DNA of 64,000 bases from an uncultured delta proteobacterium. GTDB taxonomy: Bacteria; Desulfobacterota; Binatia; UBA9968. The stretch covers positions 608,001-672,000 of the forward strand of contig CAVTUQ010000002.1 in assembly GCA_963737905.1 (NCBI GenBank). Direction: 5' to 3'. Made by a program: the position numbers and the translations under genes. This document shows, one piece after another, positions 31,646 to 40,092 of the stretch; positions within the stretch are counted from its first letter, which is position 1; every line of letters begins with the position of its first letter. The notes beneath the pieces were generated by a model. That model did not search any database. It was not told where the DNA came from and saw only the letters and a list, made by a program, of their open reading frames with translations.

Positions 31646-34077
31646 TCACCCGACAGAGACGCTGTTAGCCGCAGGCTCATCCGATTGAGATGAGGGTTCC
31701 AACTCTTGAACAGTTTTCTTACGCTTATGAAAAGCGAGAAAGGCAGTCACTCCAGTGAGCGCGACAAGAGTAATTGCAGAAATTGCAAGACCAACTGTAA
31801 ATGACCTCGGCTCATAGCGAAACTCCACGGTGTGGTTGCCAGCAGGCAATGGGACAGCGCGAAAGAATAGGTTCGCTCTTCGGATAACTTCCTCTCGACC
31901 GTCCACGAAAGCCCTCCAACCAGGATAATACGAATCGCCAAGAACTAAGATTCCCTCGTTATCAGCCGACGTCGTTATCCTAACGCGTGAATTCTCATAC
32001 CGTACGATTTTGGCCGTTGCTTTCAACTGACGTACTGGTGGCATCGGTATCTCACTATCGAGCACGACTTCTCGTGTTGGATCGAATCCCGCGCTGGATA
32101 ACCGCTGCAGCACCTGCCTAGAGTCTTTCTCCACCACTGCCCTGTTGACAATATAGGCGCGTGAAATAGTTCCCTCGATTTCGTAAAGCCACGAAAAGGA
32201 ATCGGGAAAATGCCCAGTCCGACGAGTGCCGTTCTCGGGCAGAGCTTGAAAAGCCACGAGGTATTTTACGTTAAACGTACGCAAGAGCTTTATCTGGGTG
32301 GTGAAGTCAAGCTGGTTGGCGAAGAAGAGGAAATCCGTATACGGCTGTCTTCCCAGCGCGTCGATTTCCTGGAAATAATCAACGCCGTAAAATAGCCCTG
32401 CATTAGGGAGAAGGTTTTCAAACGATAGCGCGATTGATTCTTTCAATGTTGGGTGGCCCAGAACGGTTACCGCACTGGGGTGTAAATCTCGGGCCGACGG
32501 ATAGTAAAAAAATCGATTCAGGTCACTCTCTCGTGTCTGCAAGACCCGCTTGCTTTCATATACGAAGCCGGGGTGTAGGGGAAATAGAAAACCTTTGTGC
32601 GCCCAAGCGAGATCGACAAAAACCGCCGATACCATAAGAACGCCAAAAACGCGTAGCCGGATCGCTTTGGTTTTTGCCAAGACAATCAGCAATAGAAATC
32701 CTAGAGAGAGGGCAACTTGCCTATCCAAATTTGACATTGCCCCAGCGATCTTCTTGGCGTGGTCGGGAGACAACACCGGAACCCAGTTTTGAGCGGCGAT
32801 GAAACGACCGAGTAGGTCCAGATTGGACCTAGAAAAAATATAGATCCCCAGCCACGCTACGCATACCATGGAGAGAGCTACTAAGGGTCCCTTAACGCTG
32901 CCCCCTTCGTTCAATAGCGAATCGCTGAGTCCTTTGAGAGCTACATATAAGAGAAGTACGTAAGTGAAGAAAAAAAATTTTGCCGGGAAACGAAATGCTC
33001 CGAGAAACGGTAGATGACGAAACAGGAAAGGATAAATAGGCGTATAGCTACCCAGAGCAACTATCAATGACGCGGCAACTAAACTCATGAGCGCAATTTT
33101 TTCGCGTAAAGAACTGAAACAAAGCCAGAGACTTATCCCAAAGGCAGAGATTGCTCCCAGATAGTAACTTACGAAAAATGGCGCTTCACGGCCAAAAAAA
33201 AGACGGACCCCCTTGGAGGTCGTCGGGTCAATCTCTTTGTCCAAGAAAAAAAGGTTTAGAAGGTTCATGGGGTTAAGGGACCAGTGCAAGGCCTCTTGCG
33301 GTGGGATTGGTTGTTGTCGCCGCGATTCCAAGAAAAGTTCGGCAGTGGGAAGAACTTGGACCATCACGAGTCCCAAGACTAAAAGATTCGCGGCTATTAA
33401 AACAGACACCAGCTTTCCACGCGATAAGGTGGACACAGACCGCCTCACCTTCATTCCATCGAGAAGAACCAAGACCATGCTGATCGCAAATAGTTCGGGA
33501 GAACCTGCTAGAAATTGCATCGCGGTAATCAAGGTGAACGCTAGAAAATTCTTCCACGAGCTCGAACGAAGAAGTTTCTCCCAGCTCAAAATGACCCAAG
33601 GGAGCCAGACCGCGGTTTGAAAGTGATTCAGCAAGTTGCTCAGGGAAACAACGGTCCCCCCGAGGGCGAACAGCAACGCCCCAACGATTGACAAGTAGGG
33701 AGGAAATTTCCAGTTGCGGCAGAGAAGATAAGCCCCAATCCCTGCTATCAAGAAGTGGAATATGAAAATGGCGCGGATCGCTGGGAAGAAGGACAGAATC
33801 AAAAATAGATGTGCGGCGGATAGAACACACCTGACTGGAAGGCAGCCAACAGCGGAAATCCCATGGCCATGTGGCGGTTCCAGAGGGGCAGCTCTCCAGA
33901 CCGAAAACTCTCATAGAGAGTAAATCGTAATGGATAAAAATATGGACCTAAGTCGCGGAAGAACGGGACTTGTTCTTGGAGAATCAAGTCTTGGCAAAAC
34001 CAGAGGATTAACAAAGATAAGATGAGTAAAGGCATGAGCCTGGATAAACGATTTCCCCAAGCGATTCTCGAATCCAT
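31646..34077 (-). CDS. YfhO-family (GT-C) membrane glycosyltransferase, 1-nt frameshift in an A5/T5 run near 33801
   Basis: FRDLGPYFYP, GELPLWNRHMAMGFPLLA, FRFPAKF, LVLGDSYYPGWRAFVDG, RAVPLPAGNHTVEFRYEP; ORFs 33799-34077 and 31646-33802. Confidence 0.88.
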
Positions 34078-34131
34078 AAGTCGTTTGTCGTTTGCTGAGT
34101 AGTTAGAAGACGGTACGGGTAACCAACAAAG

Positions 34132-34166
34132 AAAAAGGGGGTGGTCGCTCACGACTCACCCCCTTT
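34132..34166 (-). terminator. Terminator downstream of pilA
   Basis: AAAGGGGGTG...CACCCCCTTT stem with a T-rich tail on the minus strand. Confidence 0.8.
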
Positions 34167-34201
34167 GTAAACAATTTCAGCTAAAGTGAGCGATACTCTC
34201 G

Positions 34202-34585
34202 TTACTGACAAGGACCTCCCGTTATCTGTCCAGTCGCACTACTAAAAGTCCAGGTGTCGCTAGCGCAGTTCGCGTGCTGAGCAGTTATGGAAAATGCGTT
34301 CGTTGCAACCGTCGCAGTTGACGTGACATCATTGCTCTTGTTAAACCCTGTCGGCGTTCCACTGGCCATCGCTCCACCCTTGTACGTGAAAGCTTGGGTA
34401 AAATAAGCTTCCTGCGCCGTAGCCGCATTCCTGAGATCGGATTTAACTTGTGCTTCATAGCCACGTTTTCTATAGGCCGAGAACTGAGGAATCGCAATGG
34501 CCGCCAAGATACCTATGATTGCGACAACAACAAGAAGTTCGATAAGTGTAAACCCGGATTCGTTGCGTAACCTTAAATTGTCCAT
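34202..34585 (-). CDS. pilA: Type IVa major pilin, Geobacter-like N-terminal helix
   Basis: Class III signal G|FTLIELLVVVAIIGILAAIAIPQFSAYR; 116-aa mature protein with C-terminal Cys pair. Confidence 0.95.
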   Translation of the reverse strand: MDNLRLRNESGFTLIELLVVVAIIGILAAIAIPQFSAYRKRGYEAQVKSDLRNAATAQEAYFTQAFTYKGGAMASGTPTGFNKSNDVTSTATVATNAFSITAQHANCASDTWTFSSATGQITGGPCQ

Positions 34586-34748
34586 TTGTGAAGTACTCCC
34601 TTCGTTTATATTTTCCCGTTGTTAATGTCTCCTGCGACCTCCTACGGGAGTGGAGGTCACAAGCAACTAGATCATAAAAAAACAGTCCCCTATATTCTCA
34701 CCTCCTTGGGCAAAGGCGTTCGGAAGCTAAGACCTAAAAATGTGCACC

Positions 34749-34763
34749 GCAAATCCAGGGCCA
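34749..34763 (-). promoter_or_regulatory. sigma54 promoter of pilA
   Basis: Minus strand TGGCCCTGGATTTGC matches TGGCAC-N5-TTGC with exact GG-N10-GC spacing; an adjacent gene encodes a sigma54 activator. Confidence 0.85.
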
Positions 34764-34938
34764 GCCTGATTTCGCGAGACGCAGGGTCACAACAGAGGGT
34801 GATTGTGGATTTTCACTTGTTTCAAAAATTGCGACTTATTAAGAGCTTATAGGTTGTCCGAAAAGATCGAGGCCCCTTGGAAGTTTAGCTAGTAGCGGGC
34901 GGGATCATTCTAGTTTACGTAAAAGAGAATTTGGATTG

Positions 34939-34953
34939 TAACAAAATTTGTTA
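34939..34953. promoter_or_regulatory. Candidate upstream activating sequence for the PilR-like domain
   Basis: Perfect palindrome TAACAAA-A-TTTGTTA about 180 bp upstream of the -24 element. Confidence 0.5.
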
Positions 34954-34972
34954 TTGACCCGCCGGCGAATCA

Positions 34973-37003
34973 TCAGCGAGCGACGGCGTTTTTGGAGTTC
35001 AGCAATCCATATTTTTCCAGTCGATGGCGAAGAGATCTATAGTTAATGCCCAAAATCTCGGCAGCTCGCTTTTGTACCCCATTTGTCCTTTTAAGCGCGC
35101 CCAAAAGGATGCATTTTTCATGCGTTTCCAATTCAACGTCCAAAGACAAGCCTTTGGCGAAAAACAGATCCGCACCGCCGGGCGCGGTTCTCTCAAAAAC
35201 CTCGGCTTCCTCGTTGATTGCCACTCCTTTGATATGGGCTGGTAGATCTTCCTCAGTCATAATATTCTTATTCGCGACCGCGACCGCGTGTTCGATTATG
35301 TTTTCTAGCTCACGGACATTTCCCGGATAGCTATATCCCATTAGATGCATCAAGGCGCCGCTAGATATTTCCTCCACTTGCTTGCCGTGGGAAGCTGCAA
35401 ATTTGCGCATAAAGTGATGTGCCAGCGTTGGAATGTCCTCCTTTCTGTTGCGAAGCGGAGGCATCACTATCTGTACGACGTTAAGCCGATAAAATAGATC
35501 TCTCCGAAACCGACCGTCTTCCATCTCTTTGTGCAAATCTCGGTTCGTCGCGGAAATGACCCGTACATCAACTTTGATCTGCTTGCTGCCCCCCACCGGG
35601 GTAAAAGCTTTCTCTTGCAAAACCCTCAGCAGTTTTACCTGCAGGTGGAGCGGCAATTCCCCGACCTCATCTAGAAAAATCGTTCCTTGATCAGCCTGTT
35701 TGAACAACCCCAGATGTTCGGCAACAGCACCGGTGAAGGCGCCACGGGCATGTCCAAACAGCTCGCTTTCAATCAGGGTTTCGGGTATGGCGCCGCAATT
35801 GACCGCAACGAAAGGCATGTTTTTCCTTGATCCATTAAGATGAATCGCGCGCGCGATGAGTTCTTTGCCGGTCCCGCTTTCCCCTGTAATCAGAATGTTC
35901 GTGTTGTTTCTCGCCACCTTTTGAACCAGATTATAGATCTTTTCGATTCCACCACTCTTGCCGATGATACCCTCGAAATAGAAATCCGCATCCTCAATCC
36001 CACCAGGCCTTTGCTCCAGGTCGAACTCCCGCCCCCGACGCAATTCGTCCTCAAGTCGCAACTTCTCCTCAACCTCTCTTTGCTTACTGATGTCTTCGAA
36101 GATCGAGACGTAACCGACCAGCTGGTCGGACGCGTTGCTCAACGGTGCCAGCGTAAGTCGTAGCTGTTTCTGGTGTCCCTCGGAGGCAGCGAACGCGATC
36201 TCATCGGTCGAGATGCTTCGCCCTTCTCGTGAGCCGAGAAAGTTGGGCGTCATCCCTGGAAATATCTCATCCAACTTCTTTCCCTTAACATTTGCCTCTT
36301 GGAGCGACGTCAAATTCTGAGCCTGGCTGTTAAAGTAGTTTATGCGCCCTTCCGCATCCGTAATCGCAACACCGCTACCCACTCCCTGGAGAAGAGTCTC
36401 TTTAAGCGCGTCGAGCTCGAGGTAATCCGTATGTTTTTCCTTGAGCAGTCTTTCAGTCTCACTCAGTTTACGAGCGAGAAACCCGCCCAGTCCGGCAATG
36501 GCGAAAAAACTGCCAATGTTCAGTACCCCCGGCATCAGCTGCGACCATGACACGGGAATGCCGCTGCCGTGATGGAAAGTGCTGGTCCAACTCAGAAGAG
36601 CCACATAGCACAAACTGGAAAACCCTGCGGTAAAGAACGCCCCTCGATAAAACAACAGAATGGCTCCGTTCATCACGGCGAGATTGTAGAGAAAAGGGAA
36701 CGGGCTCGTGAAATCTCCGGTAAGCCAGATAATGCCCGTGATCAAGACAACATCGAAATCGATTTGGAGATGCGCAAAGAAACGAAGGTCAGGGATATAC
36801 GGGAGGACGAGAGCTGATCCAATGGAAATGGCGTAGGCAATGATGAGCGGGATCGAAAGCGTATAAAAAAAATGAAGATCCCCGTTGTTCTGCTTGAAAA
36901 ACTGGAAGAGCGCCGTCGCGCCCAAGAAAAAGGATAAGATGACAACCCGGAGAAAGAGCAGCCATCTGATTTTCTCTGTCAAATCCTTGCGCTCGTCGAT
37001 CAC
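34973..37003 (-). CDS. Fused PilS(TM+PAS)-PilR(AAA+/HTH) membrane-bound sigma54 enhancer-binding protein
   Basis: PilS-like N-terminus (IRWLLFLR, QIDFD..ITG..WLTG..SPFPFLY), PAS (SGVAITDAEGRINYFNSQA..FEDIS), then GESGTGKE, GAFTGA, FLDEVGE, YPGNVRELEN and HTH RAAEILGINYRSLRHRL. No HisKA H-box, HATPase or receiver domain. Confidence 0.9.
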   Translation of the reverse strand: MIDERKDLTEKIRWLLFLRVVILSFFLGATALFQFFKQNNGDLHFFYTLSIPLIIAYAISIGSALVLPYIPDLRFFAHLQIDFDVVLITGIIWLTGDFTSPFPFLYNLAVMNGAILLFYRGAFFTAGFSSLCYVALLSWTSTFHHGSGIPVSWSQLMPGVLNIGSFFAIAGLGGFLARKLSETERLLKEKHTDYLELDALKETLLQGVGSGVAITDAEGRINYFNSQAQNLTSLQEANVKGKKLDEIFPGMTPNFLGSREGRSISTDEIAFAASEGHQKQLRLTLAPLSNASDQLVGYVSIFEDISKQREVEEKLRLEDELRRGREFDLEQRPGGIEDADFYFEGIIGKSGGIEKIYNLVQKVARNNTNILITGESGTGKELIARAIHLNGSRKNMPFVAVNCGAIPETLIESELFGHARGAFTGAVAEHLGLFKQADQGTIFLDEVGELPLHLQVKLLRVLQEKAFTPVGGSKQIKVDVRVISATNRDLHKEMEDGRFRRDLFYRLNVVQIVMPPLRNRKEDIPTLAHHFMRKFAASHGKQVEEISSGALMHLMGYSYPGNVRELENIIEHAVAVANKNIMTEEDLPAHIKGVAINEEAEVFERTAPGGADLFFAKGLSLDVELETHEKCILLGALKRTNGVQKRAAEILGINYRSLRHRLEKYGLLNSKNAVAR

Positions 37004-37055
37004 AGTAAAGGCTTGCGCTCCAACGAAGGTGAAGATATCGGACTCTACGTTTGTT

Positions 37056-38276
37056 CTAAGACACCACGGAACCTAATTGAAAGATCGGCAGATACATTGA
37101 GATAACCAATCCGCCGAGGATCACTCCGAGGACAACCATGATCATGGGCTCCATGAGGGCAGTCAAATTGGCGACAGCATCATCTACTTCGTCTTCATAA
37201 AGCTCAGCCACCTTTCTAAGCATGGTGTCCAGCCCGCCGGTGTTCTCGCCGACGGCCACCATCTGGCAAACCATTGGCGGAAAGATCTTGCTCTCTCGCA
37301 AAGGCTCAGCCACCGTTCTTCCCTGACTGATGCTTACTCGGCTGTCCATGATCGCTTTTTCAATGACACGGTTACCTGCGGTCCTGGCCGTGATCGCCAG
37401 GCCGTCGAGGATTGGGACGCCGGAACTCAGAAGGATAGCCATGTTTTGTGAGAAGCGAGCTACCGCTACCTTGCGCAATAAATCGCCCACAACGGGCAGC
37501 CTGAGGAGGAATCGATCAATGTTCATCTGTCCATTATCCGTTTGATAATAGAAGCGAATTCCGACAATGATTCCGACAAGGGCAAAAACCATATAGAGAA
37601 AGTTGGCGCGGAACCAATTACTGATGTTGATCGTTATCTGTGTGGGCGCCGGCAAGGCTTTACCCATGCTACCATAGAGTTCCGCAAAAACGGGGATAAC
37701 GAAGATCAGTAAGATGGCCACAACGACGATAGCGACTACAATGATCGTGCAAGGATAAATCATCGCCCCTTTAACTTTTTTCTTGAGCTTGTTGGCCTTT
37801 TCGATAAATAGGGCGATTCGATTGAGGATTGCGTTCAACACACCGCCAGCCTCACCGGCTTGGACCATATTGACATACAGGTCGTCGAAGATTTTCGGGT
37901 GTTTTCGAAGAGCCTCAGCCAATGTAGAACCGCCTTCGACATCTTGCTTGATCGCACGCAGGGTATTGCGTAGTACCTTGCTTTCGCTTTGTTGAGTCTG
38001 AATATCCAAGCATTGTACGATGGGTAGCCCGGCATCGATCATCGTAGCGAACTGCCGGGTGAATACAGAAAGGTCCCGGGCCTTAATCTTTTCGCCAAAA
38101 CCGGGGATTTTGATTTCTGTATCCAATCCCCGGCCTTTTTCCCGAATCCGGTTCGGGATCGGCCGAATTCTGCGATCCCGCAGGATCGCAAAAACGGCTT
38201 CCAGATTGGGCGCTTCGACTTCCCCTTTCAGGACTCGTCCCTGCGCGGTTTTTCCTTCCCACAGGAATATTGCCAT
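37056..38276 (-). CDS. pilC: Type IV pilus platform protein (T2SS-F family)
   Basis: FTRQFATMIDAGLP, GEAGGVL, GENTGGLDTML, EPMIMVVLG. Confidence 0.96.
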   Translation of the reverse strand: MAIFLWEGKTAQGRVLKGEVEAPNLEAVFAILRDRRIRPIPNRIREKGRGLDTEIKIPGFGEKIKARDLSVFTRQFATMIDAGLPIVQCLDIQTQQSESKVLRNTLRAIKQDVEGGSTLAEALRKHPKIFDDLYVNMVQAGEAGGVLNAILNRIALFIEKANKLKKKVKGAMIYPCTIIVVAIVVVAILLIFVIPVFAELYGSMGKALPAPTQITINISNWFRANFLYMVFALVGIIVGIRFYYQTDNGQMNIDRFLLRLPVVGDLLRKVAVARFSQNMAILLSSGVPILDGLAITARTAGNRVIEKAIMDSRVSISQGRTVAEPLRESKIFPPMVCQMVAVGENTGGLDTMLRKVAELYEDEVDDAVANLTALMEPMIMVVLGVILGGLVISMYLPIFQLGSVVS

Positions 38277-38364
38277 CGATTACGTCCTCTCTTGAAAACC
38301 TAATCTTAGTTTGCTCAACGGCGTTAAAAATCACCGGGGACCGGTCTTTTGCACCGGCCGGGCG

Positions 38365-40092
38365 TCAGAAACCCAATGAGAAAACCGATCCAAACCCTTT
38401 GTCCGTATCGGTTACGCGAACGGTTTCCTCAATAGTCGTTAGCCCCTCACGAACCTTCTGGAGGGCGCTCATACGGAGCGTGCTCATGCCCAGTTTCACG
38501 GCCTCTCGCTTGAGCTCAACCACCGACGCATTCCGCAGAATCAACTCCTTGACACCCTCGTGCATGACCATCACTTCATAGATGGCCAAACGGCCTCGAT
38601 ATCCCGTGCCGTTACAATTGGCACAACCTCGCCCATGAAAGGTGGAAAAGCCGGCGCCAACCTCTGTTGGGTCCACACCTAAATTGATCAAAATCTCAGG
38701 ACTCACTTCTCCCGGTTCTTTGCACTTTTCGCAAATTCGCCGTACCAACCTTTGGGCCGCGATCAGATTAATGGACGAAATCAGCAAGAAAGTCTCGACG
38801 CCCATGTTGACCAAGCGATCAACGGTAGAAGGAGCATCGTTGGTATGGAGAGTGCTGAGGACCAAGTGACCCGTCAACGCGGCTTTGACGGCGATCTGCG
38901 CAGTTTCAAGATCGCGAACTTCTCCGACCATAATGATGTCGGGATCCTGTCGAAGAAATGACCGCAGGGCGGCGGCAAAGGTTAACCCGATTTGCTCCCG
39001 GACCTGCACTTGGTTGATTCCAACCAAGTTGTACTCGACCGGATCTTCGGCCGTGGAAATGTTGACGTCGGGTTTGTTGAGCTCCGAGAGCGCGGAATAG
39101 AGCGTAGTCGACTTTCCGCTACCCGTCGGACCGGTGATAAGAATCATGCCGTATGGTTTGTGTATCGCTTCCAAGAAATCTTTAAGGGTTTGCGGATCGA
39201 AACCAAGTTTGGACATGTCCAGTTGGAGATTGGATTTGTCCAATAACCGCATGACGACTTTCTCGCCAAATAACGTCGGTAGTACCGAGACGCGGATATC
39301 CAATTCTCCGCCTACTCCCATCTTTAACTTGATCCGGCCATCCTGGGTGAGGCGCCGCTCAGCAATATCCAGTCCGGCCATGACCTTGAGGCGGGACACT
39401 AAAGGATTTTTTAGCCGAAGGGGCGGACTCATGATCTCCTGAAGAACCCCGTCCACTCGGAACCGCACGCGAAAGATTTTTTCGTAGGGCTCGATGTGAA
39501 TGTCGCTGGCTCGTCGCTTCGCGGCGTCGGCCAAGATCGCATTCACTAAGGTCACTACAGGCGCCTCCATAGTGGCCTGCTGAAGTTCCTGGAGGTTAAC
39601 GTCATCGCTTTCGTGGATAACCTCCATCTCTCCATCGCCAAATTTTTTCAAAACCTCATCGTAGCTTACTCCCCCAAAGCGGTGATCGAGAGTTTTTTTG
39701 ATCGCTGAAGGGGGAGCCAGCATAACCCTCACGCCGTAGCCCGTGATAAACTTCACTTCATTGATTGCAACGAGGTCTGTTGGGTCGGCCATGGCCACCG
39801 TGAGTGTAGAACCAAGAAGTTTTACCGGCACCAGCTGATGCTTTTGAATGATTTGAGGTGGAACAAGGCCAAAGACCGAATCTTCGATTTCTGAGGGACT
39901 TAAATCAACTTTTTCGATACTGAACTGCTTGGCAAGAAACTCGGTCAGGGTATCTTCGGCAGTAAAACCAAGCCGAACCAGCTCTCTAATGACACTGGAG
40001 CCCGTATCACGCTCCTTTTCCTGAGCCTGGACGAGCTGATCGCGGGAAACAATCCCTCCCCGCACCAATAACTCTGCAATACGCGGTTCCAT
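38365..40092 (-). CDS. pilB: Type IV pilus assembly ATPase
   Basis: ASDIHIEP, GPTGSGKST, EDPVE, LRQDPD..VGEVRD, TGHLVLSTLHTN and tetracysteine motif. Confidence 0.96.
   Translation of the reverse strand: MEPRIAELLVRGGIVSRDQLVQAQEKERDTGSSVIRELVRLGFTAEDTLTEFLAKQFSIEKVDLSPSEIEDSVFGLVPPQIIQKHQLVPVKLLGSTLTVAMADPTDLVAINEVKFITGYGVRVMLAPPSAIKKTLDHRFGGVSYDEVLKKFGDGEMEVIHESDDVNLQELQQATMEAPVVTLVNAILADAAKRRASDIHIEPYEKIFRVRFRVDGVLQEIMSPPLRLKNPLVSRLKVMAGLDIAERRLTQDGRIKLKMGVGGELDIRVSVLPTLFGEKVVMRLLDKSNLQLDMSKLGFDPQTLKDFLEAIHKPYGMILITGPTGSGKSTTLYSALSELNKPDVNISTAEDPVEYNLVGINQVQVREQIGLTFAAALRSFLRQDPDIIMVGEVRDLETAQIAVKAALTGHLVLSTLHTNDAPSTVDRLVNMGVETFLLISSINLIAAQRLVRRICEKCKEPGEVSPEILINLGVDPTEVGAGFSTFHGRGCANCNGTGYRGRLAIYEVMVMHEGVKELILRNASVVELKREAVKLGMSTLRMSALQKVREGLTTIEETVRVTDTDKGFGSVFSLGF

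Follow-up and report, generated by a model that had tools for sequence, protein, structure and literature searches.

A fused PilS-PilR protein encoded beside pilA in uncultured Binatia: a candidate one-component, membrane-integral sigma54 activator

The fused gene and its product

The stretch of DNA analysed here, called the window, comprises 64,000 nucleotides (nt) of contig CAVTUQ010000002.1 (positions 608,001–672,000; assembly GCA_963737905.1) from an uncultured delta proteobacterium of the Binatia. Across positions 34202–40092 its minus strand carries a row of type IV pilus genes: pilB, pilC, a gene in which pilS and pilR are fused, and pilA. All genes and protein domains given below lie on this strand. 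pilB (38365–40092) encodes the pilus extension ATPase of 575 amino acids (aa), with Pfam matches to T2SSE (1.2e-145) and MshEN, and pilC (37056–38276) encodes the platform protein of 406 aa (T2SSF, 7.3e-68). The fused gene (34973–37003), taken from the list of open reading frames (ORFs) and from Pfam, starts with GTG 52 nt after the end of pilC and encodes 676 aa in the window. Beyond it lies pilA (34202–34585) for the major pilin of 127 aa (N_methyl, 6.6e-10; TIGR02532, 34.8 bits with the cut-off at 16.3). Mature PilA has the N-terminus FTLIELLVVVAIIGILAAIAIPQF, with E5 and P22 present.

The fused protein begins with a PilS-type six-helix transmembrane (TM) domain (6TM_PilS, PF25323; residues 5–186, 36446–36991), which scored 66 bits against a cut-off of 27. 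By hydropathy, the hydrophobic segments were confined to the first ~180 residues. A cytoplasmic PAS domain follows (residues 202–309, 36077–36400; Pfam PAS, PAS_9 and PAS_4), the strands of which were modelled by AlphaFold2 at residues 211–304. The sigma54-interaction AAA+ module with its lid spans residues 346–594 (35222–35968; PF00158, 1e-72, and PF25601). Within it, Sigma54_activat covers residues 346–512, or profile positions 1–167 of 168, and AAA_lid_14 covers residues 518–594. A Fis-type helix-turn-helix (HTH) domain (HTH_8, PF02954, 2.5e-11) is found at residues 625–665 (35009–35131).

The AAA+ motifs were intact, with Walker A GESGTGKE at residue 374, GAFTGA at 421 and Walker B FLDE at 443, and their columns did not vary across 32 aligned fused proteins. 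An AlphaFold2 model from a 32-row alignment had a mean confidence score (pLDDT) of 80.2 and a predicted TM-score (pTM) of 0.41. It showed TM helices as far as residue ~177, then a helix leading into the PAS fold (211–304), a further helix (306–330), the AAA+ domain and the HTH (621–664), in this order.

No Pfam match to HisKA, HATPase_c or Response_reg was found in the fused protein at E ≤ 0.01. None of the NCBIfam equivalogs scored above its cut-off, the best being PrdR with 396 bits against 795. The initial annotation had described one 676-aa ORF that joins a PilS-like TM and PAS part to the AAA+ and HTH domains of an enhancer-binding protein of bacteria (bEBP) and that lacks HisKA, HATPase and receiver domains. 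The first part was borne out by Pfam, hydropathy and BLASTP, and the second by Pfam at the above threshold and by the limits of the alignments at the junction.

The product thus has the marks of a bEBP, namely an AAA+ domain that carries Walker A, Walker B and GAFTGA, a C-terminal Fis-type HTH, and a sigma54 promoter with an upstream palindrome (see below). It shares with PilS the six-helix TM domain, including an arginine in TM1, followed by PAS, and with PilR an orthologous AAA+-HTH part and a gene position upstream of pilA at the pilS-pilR site. The HisKA and HATPase_c domains of the PilS kinase are missing, as is the PilR receiver with its phospho-acceptor aspartate, and this makes control by phosphotransfer or by a phosphatase impossible. 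Since sensor and activator are on one polypeptide, the activator would be membrane-bound. A membrane-spanning segment and a DNA-binding domain on one polypeptide form the architecture of a transmembrane one-component regulator.

The junction (residues 306–345, 35969–36088) was mapped by BLASTP and AlphaFold2, with the canonical adjacent PilS and PilR of a locus from the same phylum (L054) as reference. Fusion residues 8–321 aligned to residues 14–335 of this PilS, ending just before its HisKA domain (339–398). Fusion residues 341–672 aligned at 55% identity to residues 139–462 of the PilR, the receiver of which occupies residues 6–115. In terms of this pair the fusion consists of PilS(1–~335) and PilR(~135–end), connected via ~19 residues with the tether RRGREFDLEQRPGGIEDAD. 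The helix at 306–330 is homologous to the PilS segment preceding HisKA.

Residues 325–341 were of low confidence in the AlphaFold2 model (pLDDT <50), and the tether between PAS and the PilR-derived part is predicted to be disordered. Measured from anchor to anchor, the junction was fixed at 53 residues in the family of the window and ranged from 25 to 51 in other fused clades; one fused clade member (P0137) had nearly no tether. A cryptic kinase or receiver domain was ruled out, because a junction of 40 residues has no room for one, and none was found by Pfam. Judged from these alignments, the composition of the fusion matches the product expected from an in-frame deletion over the boundary of pilS and pilR.

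Contigs from two separate studies bridged the junction (window 35984–36040) without joints. One, of 4053 nt, covered 34150–36579, and the other, of 1593 nt, covered 35955–37100. The two studies are independent.

Near its 3' end the fused gene of the window differs by a 1-nt indel at 34982/34983 from contigs of two independent studies. Because this indel shifts the frame, the last ~5 residues of the window protein (...NAVAR) differ from those of the relatives (...NPALADDSPAGQ). The fused protein of the relatives has 683 aa, 7 aa more, with the C-terminus ...PALADDSPAGQ and a TAA at about 34951–34953. The indel reflects an error in the assembly or else strain variation, and the HTH domain is untouched by it.

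In a single soil RNA run, two short contigs fell within the AAA+ region (35076–35276 and 35685–35910). DNA carry-over is possible in such a run, and these contigs therefore do not establish expression of the fused gene.

Spread and origin of the fusion

A word-indexed search of a protein database, with 8000 candidates scored, listed 120 homologues. All of those listed (75–99% identity, 664–694 aa) carried PF25323, PF00158 and PF02954, and several were on contigs of 100–900 kb. They were labelled 'response regulator PilR' (in JGI) or, in metagenome-assembled genomes (MAGs) of Candidatus Binatia and one of Zixibacteria, 'sigma 54-interacting transcriptional regulator'. Fused proteins already number hundreds in the databases, under plain PilR or sigma-54 regulator names. 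A related-locus search with the single protein found one close relative, in a MAG labelled Deltaproteobacteria bacterium. The same search also met an unrelated Alteromonas bEBP, for which the match was confined to the C-terminal half.

The genome of the window and 40 related genomes were scanned as well. Matches to 6TM_PilS were found in 26 of the 41 genomes: 23 of the 24 in the same family (22 of 23 without G006, which is flagged unpublished), two of five in another family from the same order, and none of 11 in a third. The best matches that were not cut by a contig end sat in open frames of ~680–750 aa. Gene order, judged in the relatives from ORF sizes and not from Pfam, was kept in all 20 loci of the family, with pilB of ~575 aa, pilC of ~406 aa and a fused gene of 673–700 aa. 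A pilin with the GFTLIE motif followed the fused gene in 17 of these 20; two loci (L042 and L052) ended earlier, and L048 held a pilin fragment.

The fusion is thus not unique to the assembly of the window. Misassembly was ruled out by the 120 listed homologues, by the 23 of 24 genomes of the family, and by the contigs of two studies over the junction.

A search with the TM domain only (residues 1–200; 1.84 billion cluster representatives, profile-free) gave 799 matches at E ≤ 1e-3. Among the best 150 of the 799, 87 were at least 500 aa long, and 84 of these were scanned with Pfam, three being omitted for size. Ten were fused, 73 were of the kinase type (HisKA and HATPase_c), and one had the TM domain only. 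The ten fused representatives carried 6TM_PilS, PAS, Sigma54_activat, the lid and HTH_8 in 637–775 aa, and the named ones came from Binatia or Deltaproteobacteria MAGs.

A sample of 200 genomes of the phylum contained full-length matches in four genomes from four other families (query residues 4–668, 40–43% identity). The other 70 genomes that matched at E ≤ 1e-100 did so mostly over residues ~300/345–670 only, in frames of about 450–500 aa. Eight loci with partial matches read pilT-pilC-pilS-pilR by ORF sizes, and three (L054, L057 and L063) were verified with Pfam. As proposed in the initial annotation, the fusion occupies the place after pilC where related genomes hold separate pilS and pilR genes.

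Among 14 control genomes, 6TM_PilS matched in Caulobacter vibrioides alone. Pilin-dependent signalling is reported for Caulobacter (PMC7196804).

Trees were made separately for the two halves. The AAA+-HTH tree had 59 rows (quick IQ-TREE; four duplicates removed and the own family reduced from 22 to 10 rows), and the TM-PAS tree had 104 rows (FastTree; own family thinned to nine rows). Both half-trees gave the same partition of fused and canonical sequences. The family of the window and the Binatia-labelled representatives formed an exclusively fused clade, with support of 94 in the AAA+-HTH tree and 100 in the TM-PAS tree. Other fused sequences (L059, L060, L062, P0137 and P0248) were nested among canonical PilR and PilS sequences, and the well-supported branches required at least two changes of state.

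The congruent half-trees and the clade-specific junctions indicate recurrent fusion, with both halves coming from one pair. On this phylogenetic evidence the fusion arose at least twice, each time from a single pilS-pilR pair.

The fused AAA+-HTH halves and eight PilRs formed one clade (SH-aLRT, an approximate likelihood ratio test, 96) that excluded the 29 other bEBPs of the own genome in the tree. Foreign PilRs scored 356–390 bits against the window AAA+-HTH, and the best paralogue of the own genome scored 292 bits. The only 6TM_PilS match in the own genome was the fused gene itself; rpoN was present. No second PilS domain and no separate gene of the PilR clade were found in this 6.7-Mb, 87%-complete genome.

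Other bEBPs of this genome were recorded in passing. Two 485-aa ORFs of the receiver type (C11:53502–54959 and C19:168506–169963) both scored 293.0 bits over identical ranges. They may represent a recent duplication or assembly redundancy, the contamination of the genome being 6.7%. A further activator of 1223 aa (G000 contig C32, 48726–52397, minus strand; locus L066:10730–14398) has a MASE1 domain (8 TM helices), several PAS domains, GAF, Sigma54_activat and HTH_8, and no receiver. A soluble 921-aa paralogue is encoded near it.

The ratio of nonsynonymous to synonymous substitution (dN/dS) was estimated from 20 pairs; synonymous sites were saturated in most, and the ratios come from 2–6 pairs per domain. 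They were 0.05–0.18 for the TM region (median 0.064, five usable pairs), 0.07–0.18 for PAS (six), 0.09–0.35 for the junction (four), 0.05–0.06 for AAA+ (two) and 0.01–0.04 for the C-terminus (three). Both halves of the fusion are under purifying selection, and the sensor half is constrained like the motor half, which a decaying remnant would not be expected to show.

Cis elements between the fused gene and pilA

A sigma54 promoter, TGGCCCTGGATTTGCG, with a –24 GG and a –12 GC in GG-N10-GC spacing, lies at 34748–34763 on the minus strand, ~165 nt upstream of the pilA ATG. About 190 nt upstream of the promoter is the inverted repeat ATAAC-AAATTTT-GTTAC (34938–34954), a candidate upstream activating sequence (UAS) with the family consensus GTAAC-N7-GTTAC. 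Both had been pointed out in the initial annotation, and each proved to be conserved in position in 14 of the 18 loci (the window and 17 relatives) in which pilA and the end of the fused gene are both present. In these 14, the strict promoter TGGC-N7-TTGC stood 174–209 nt past the stop codon of the regulator. The palindrome, scored at a minimum of 8 of 10 arm bases, was likewise within 50 nt of the stop codon in 14 loci. In 12 of the latter the repeat began 4 nt ahead of the stop codon's end, placing the TAA inside the left arm; the window departs from this pattern only through the frame shift caused by its 1-nt indel.

The same motif, in the form GTGAC-N7-GTCA(C), was found directly after two further stop codons, that of the canonical pilR in L063 and that of the fused gene in L059, which belongs to another clade. 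At both loci the motif is followed by a sigma54-type promoter and then by pilA. Another canonical locus (L064) has the related elements GTGACA and TGTTAC. The PilR sites of Pseudomonas aeruginosa are described as TGT-N11-AGA with GTCT elements (PMC6058289), to which the GTAAC-N7-GTTAC motif is related at best.

Four palindrome sites in the genome have a relaxed promoter-like match within 400 nt. Only the pilA copy pairs with a strict TGGC-N7-TTGC promoter, and the spacer of its palindrome is A/T-rich. No larger regulon for the palindrome was definable from the genome-wide scan.

A second small palindrome, TTTACGTAAA, was seen by eye at ~34913–34924, ~27 nt to the promoter side of the main repeat, with an ACGTAA core in the relatives. 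It may be a second activator site. The strict consensus for integration host factor (IHF) was present in four of the 18 intergenic regions (L038, L041, L043 and L051), always ~100 nt past the stop codon. These matches sit at the midpoint between UAS and promoter, and by eye the window counterpart is one base off. An IHF site between UAS and promoter is suggestive only.

The predicted pilA leader contains a near-perfect Shine-Dalgarno (SD)-like element, AAGGAGGTGA, at 34698–34707 on the minus strand, ~120 nt before the ATG. The pattern A[AG]GGAGG[TA]G was present in the leader in 11 of 18 loci, ~45–55 nt downstream of the sigma54 promoter and 75–150 nt before the pilA ATG. The ribosome-binding site of pilA in L059 is this very element. 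The element AAGGAGGTGA may be an mRNA-stabilizing or standby ribosome site. An inverted repeat, GACCTCC-N9-GGAGGTC, was also noticed by eye in the leader (~34634–34660, minus strand), the anti-SD-like arm of which pairs with the SD-like arm; the repeat might act in competition with the SD-like element upstream of it. No Rfam family matched in 34500–35050 at E ≤ 1.

Downstream of pilA, a gene for a YfhO-family membrane protein (31646–34152, minus strand) falls into two ORFs, one of 117 aa and one of 718 aa. The homologue in L033, with 787 aa, aligned over both ORFs but in different frames, and a frameshift is therefore placed near 33808. An enzyme of the GT-C type, encoded beside pilA, might glycosylate pilin in the manner of TfpW-like enzymes.

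Activation of pilA, pilin sensing and related systems

We interpreted the fusion as a one-component, membrane-integral PilR that activates pilA and senses pilin, and put the probability of this reading at about 0.6. There is good support for such a one-component PilR binding the repeat and activating pilA, and moderate support for its doing so from the membrane and in response to the pilin pool. That the TM domain senses pilin is plausible, the TM1 arginine being invariant.

PilS-PilR is the classical regulator pair of sigma54-dependent pilin genes. The systems of P. aeruginosa, Myxococcus, Geobacter, Kingella and commensal Neisseria (Nps/Npa) have the same PF25323 sensor with the TM1 arginine and PAS, an AAA+-HTH part of the same clade, a sigma54-dependent pilA with a UAS, and a position after pilC. 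The fusion differs from them by the lack of HisKA, HATPase and receiver domains and by being a single membrane-bound polypeptide. It originated by in-frame fusion of neighbouring pilS and pilR genes, in which the TM domain, PAS and pre-kinase helix of PilS and the AAA+ ATPase and HTH of PilR were kept, and HisKA, HATPase and receiver were lost.

In the first step proposed, the fusion would bind the GTAAC-N7-GTTAC repeat beside its own stop codon. By ATP hydrolysis it would remodel sigma54-RNA polymerase at the promoter ~190 nt downstream, leading to transcription of pilA. The activator would be anchored in the inner membrane during this process, and the locus would thus be held at the membrane. 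We regard this step as likely.

The second step is more tentative. The TM domain would read the pilin pool of the inner membrane through the TM1 arginine and E5 of pilin, and would thereby gate the AAA+ ring. Occupancy by pilin would hold the fusion in a state, probably dimeric, that is unable to form an active ring. Depletion of pilin would permit ring assembly, giving the negative feedback of PilS-PilR without phosphotransfer. We regard this step as plausible, with odds somewhat short of even.

R19 in TM1 was invariant in 34/34 fused and in 83/83 kinase-type sequences, 80 of the latter being verified with Pfam and three not. Q80, D84, T95, G96 and S100 were conserved in fused and kinase-type sensors. 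In the 18 aligned pilins of the family the N-terminal helix, which includes E5 and P22, hardly varied. R24 of PilS and E5 and P22 of PilA are reported to matter for the PilS-PilA interaction (PMC6528607, citing Kilmury & Burrows 2016). A complex prediction with the TM domain (1–205) and mature PilA (12–127), made without controls, scored 0.00 and carries no weight either way.

Several points weigh against the reading of the fusion as a pilin-sensing, membrane-integral PilR. DNA binding, ATPase activity and membrane insertion are predictions from sequence, and pilin binding is a hypothesis. R19 presumably corresponds to R24 of P. aeruginosa PilS. PilS proteins and pilins at large have R19, E5 and P22 invariantly or almost universally, and these residues therefore discriminate little for pilin as the signal. 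A rigid, helix-borne signal as in the kinases is unlikely, because the tether is predicted to be disordered and the junction varies from 25 to 53 residues among the fused clades. A better fit than such a rigid relay is control of the oligomeric state, with dimers that have bound pilin and free protomers that form the ring. No demonstration of a bEBP ring assembling with six TM helices per subunit was found in the literature searched. One related genome (G031) has a kinase-type PilS-like gene as well as the fused gene.

The cis elements also have exceptions. Four of the 18 loci lacked the strict promoter, each having one relaxed GG-N10-GC match at 133–193 nt, and four lacked a palindrome with at least 8 of 10 arm bases. 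The palindrome pattern was not enriched genome-wide, with 76 matches against ~83 expected. Since it occurs at chance frequency, its weight is phylogenetic, coming from its conserved position, and not statistical.

A more far-reaching proposal is that the pilin pool directly gates a membrane AAA+ ring, that a gene ending in its own binding site delivers the protein, and that this solution arose two or more times out of pilS-pilR pairs and replaced phosphotransfer throughout the uncultured lineage. Pilin subunits in the six-helix domain would prevent oligomerization. Extended pili would lower the pilin pool, a ring would form at the membrane, and the sigma54 promoter of pilA would fire. As the regulator gene ends inside its own binding site, co-translational insertion would place the protein beside its target and so solve the search problem. 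We consider this combination doubtful.

One alternative keeps the activation of pilA and assigns another role to the sensor: PAS or the TM domain would sense a cue other than pilin, such as redox, a small ligand or envelope stress, or the TM domain would mainly anchor or localize the fusion. Ethier and Boyd (2000, cited in PMC6058289) reportedly dealt with the part that the PilS TM domain plays in targeting to the pole. Purifying selection acts on the conserved PAS domain (dN/dS 0.07–0.18), and the signals of PilS homologues beyond P. aeruginosa PilS are described as unknown (PMC6528607). The TM domain, however, is at least as constrained as PAS (median 0.064), and it shares with kinase-type PilS the polar intramembrane residues R19, Q80, D84 and S100, which would be superfluous for a mere anchor. 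This alternative seemed rather unlikely to us, though it is the most serious one.

Another possibility, which we find improbable, is that the full-length fusion is an inactive precursor held in the membrane, and that proteolysis of the tether frees a constitutively active, receiver-less AAA+-HTH protein. bEBP cores that lack a receiver, for instance PspF or the truncated forms of DctD and NtrC1, are active, and the tether (~325–345), predicted to be disordered and variable in sequence, resembles many protease-accessible linkers. On the other hand, no conserved cleavage motif was found in the tether, the consensus of which was 'x' in the 32-sequence alignment, and the fused protein P0137 does nearly without a tether. 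No dedicated protease gene was noticed in the pilB-pilC-fusion-pilA neighbourhood, as judged from ORF sizes.

A non-functional remnant of a pilS-pilR pair, or an assembly artefact, is very improbable and largely refuted: gonococcal Rsp shows that such deletions arise and persist (PMC6528607, PMC10269533), the window copy has its 1-nt indel near the 3' end, and the frameshifted YfhO-like neighbour implies some errors or decay in the window assembly, but the frame is open with the same architecture in all 120 listed homologues and in 23/24 genomes of the family, every domain is under purifying selection with invariant catalytic motifs, rpoN and the sigma54 promoter are intact, contigs of two studies cross the junction without joints, and the fusion arose at least twice.

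The reading as a one-component PilR was compared with known systems. Rsp of N. gonorrhoeae, a fusion of nps/pilS and npa/pilR, is described in PMC6528607 as a modified remnant that plays no part in the transcription of pilE. PMC10269533 calls it a chimera in which the PilR DNA-binding domain is joined to the PilS receptor. By these published descriptions it resembles the fusion of the window in joining the membrane part of PilS to the C-terminal part of PilR (PMC10269533, PMC6528607). The fusion of the window differs in being lineage-wide, under purifying selection and beside an intact sigma54 promoter. Gonococcal pilE is driven by RpoD.

A pilS-pilR fusion as such therefore has precedent in print, and its conserved, lineage-wide form was not found described. 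No description of a conserved, functional bEBP with a PilS TM domain, or of such a fused PilS-PilR, was found in a literature search that left most subscription journals outside; PMC4641369 had nothing of relevance.

PspF, NifA, DmpR/XylR and NorR resemble the fusion in controlling AAA+ by means other than phosphorylation of a receiver. N-terminal sensory PAS, GAF and V4R domains are reported to be common in bEBPs, and the sensory domains to be mostly without TM regions (PMC6615313). These four types of activator are soluble, whereas the sensor of the fusion is an integral membrane domain. ToxR, CadC and TcpP are mostly single-pass, winged-helix proteins acting at sigma70 promoters. As is proposed for the fusion, they are membrane-tethered DNA-binding activators that couple an envelope signal to a promoter (PMC10269533). 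By its sequence, the fusion differs from them in being polytopic, in requiring an ATPase-ring oligomer and in acting from a distance on the sigma54 holoenzyme.

The MASE1 activator of the own genome also has an integral membrane sensor fused directly to Sigma54_activat and HTH_8 without a receiver. It differs from the fusion by its MASE1 domain and a far longer cytoplasmic sensor array, and it falls outside the PilR clade. Because the same genome encodes this MASE1-PAS-GAF-sigma54 activator as well, membrane-integral bEBPs may be a wider class in these bacteria.

bEBPs are textbook soluble AAA+ machines, the N-terminal domains of which control ring assembly, mostly through phosphorylation or a ligand. 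A polytopic bEBP raises the questions of ring formation in two dimensions, of DNA looping at the membrane, and of how an intramembrane signal passes a flexible tether. One practical consequence is that hundreds of database entries named 'response regulator PilR' are not response regulators.

This soil bacterium and its uncultured relatives offer a natural test of an activator working without the phosphorylation parts. The fusion is a natural 'minimal' PilSR, derived from the best-studied pilin-sensing two-component system. If the pilin feedback persists without kinase, phosphatase and receiver, the TM-PAS module alone would carry the pilin signal. In that case, the PilS TM-PAS module would be the cleanest system for studying pilin sensing.

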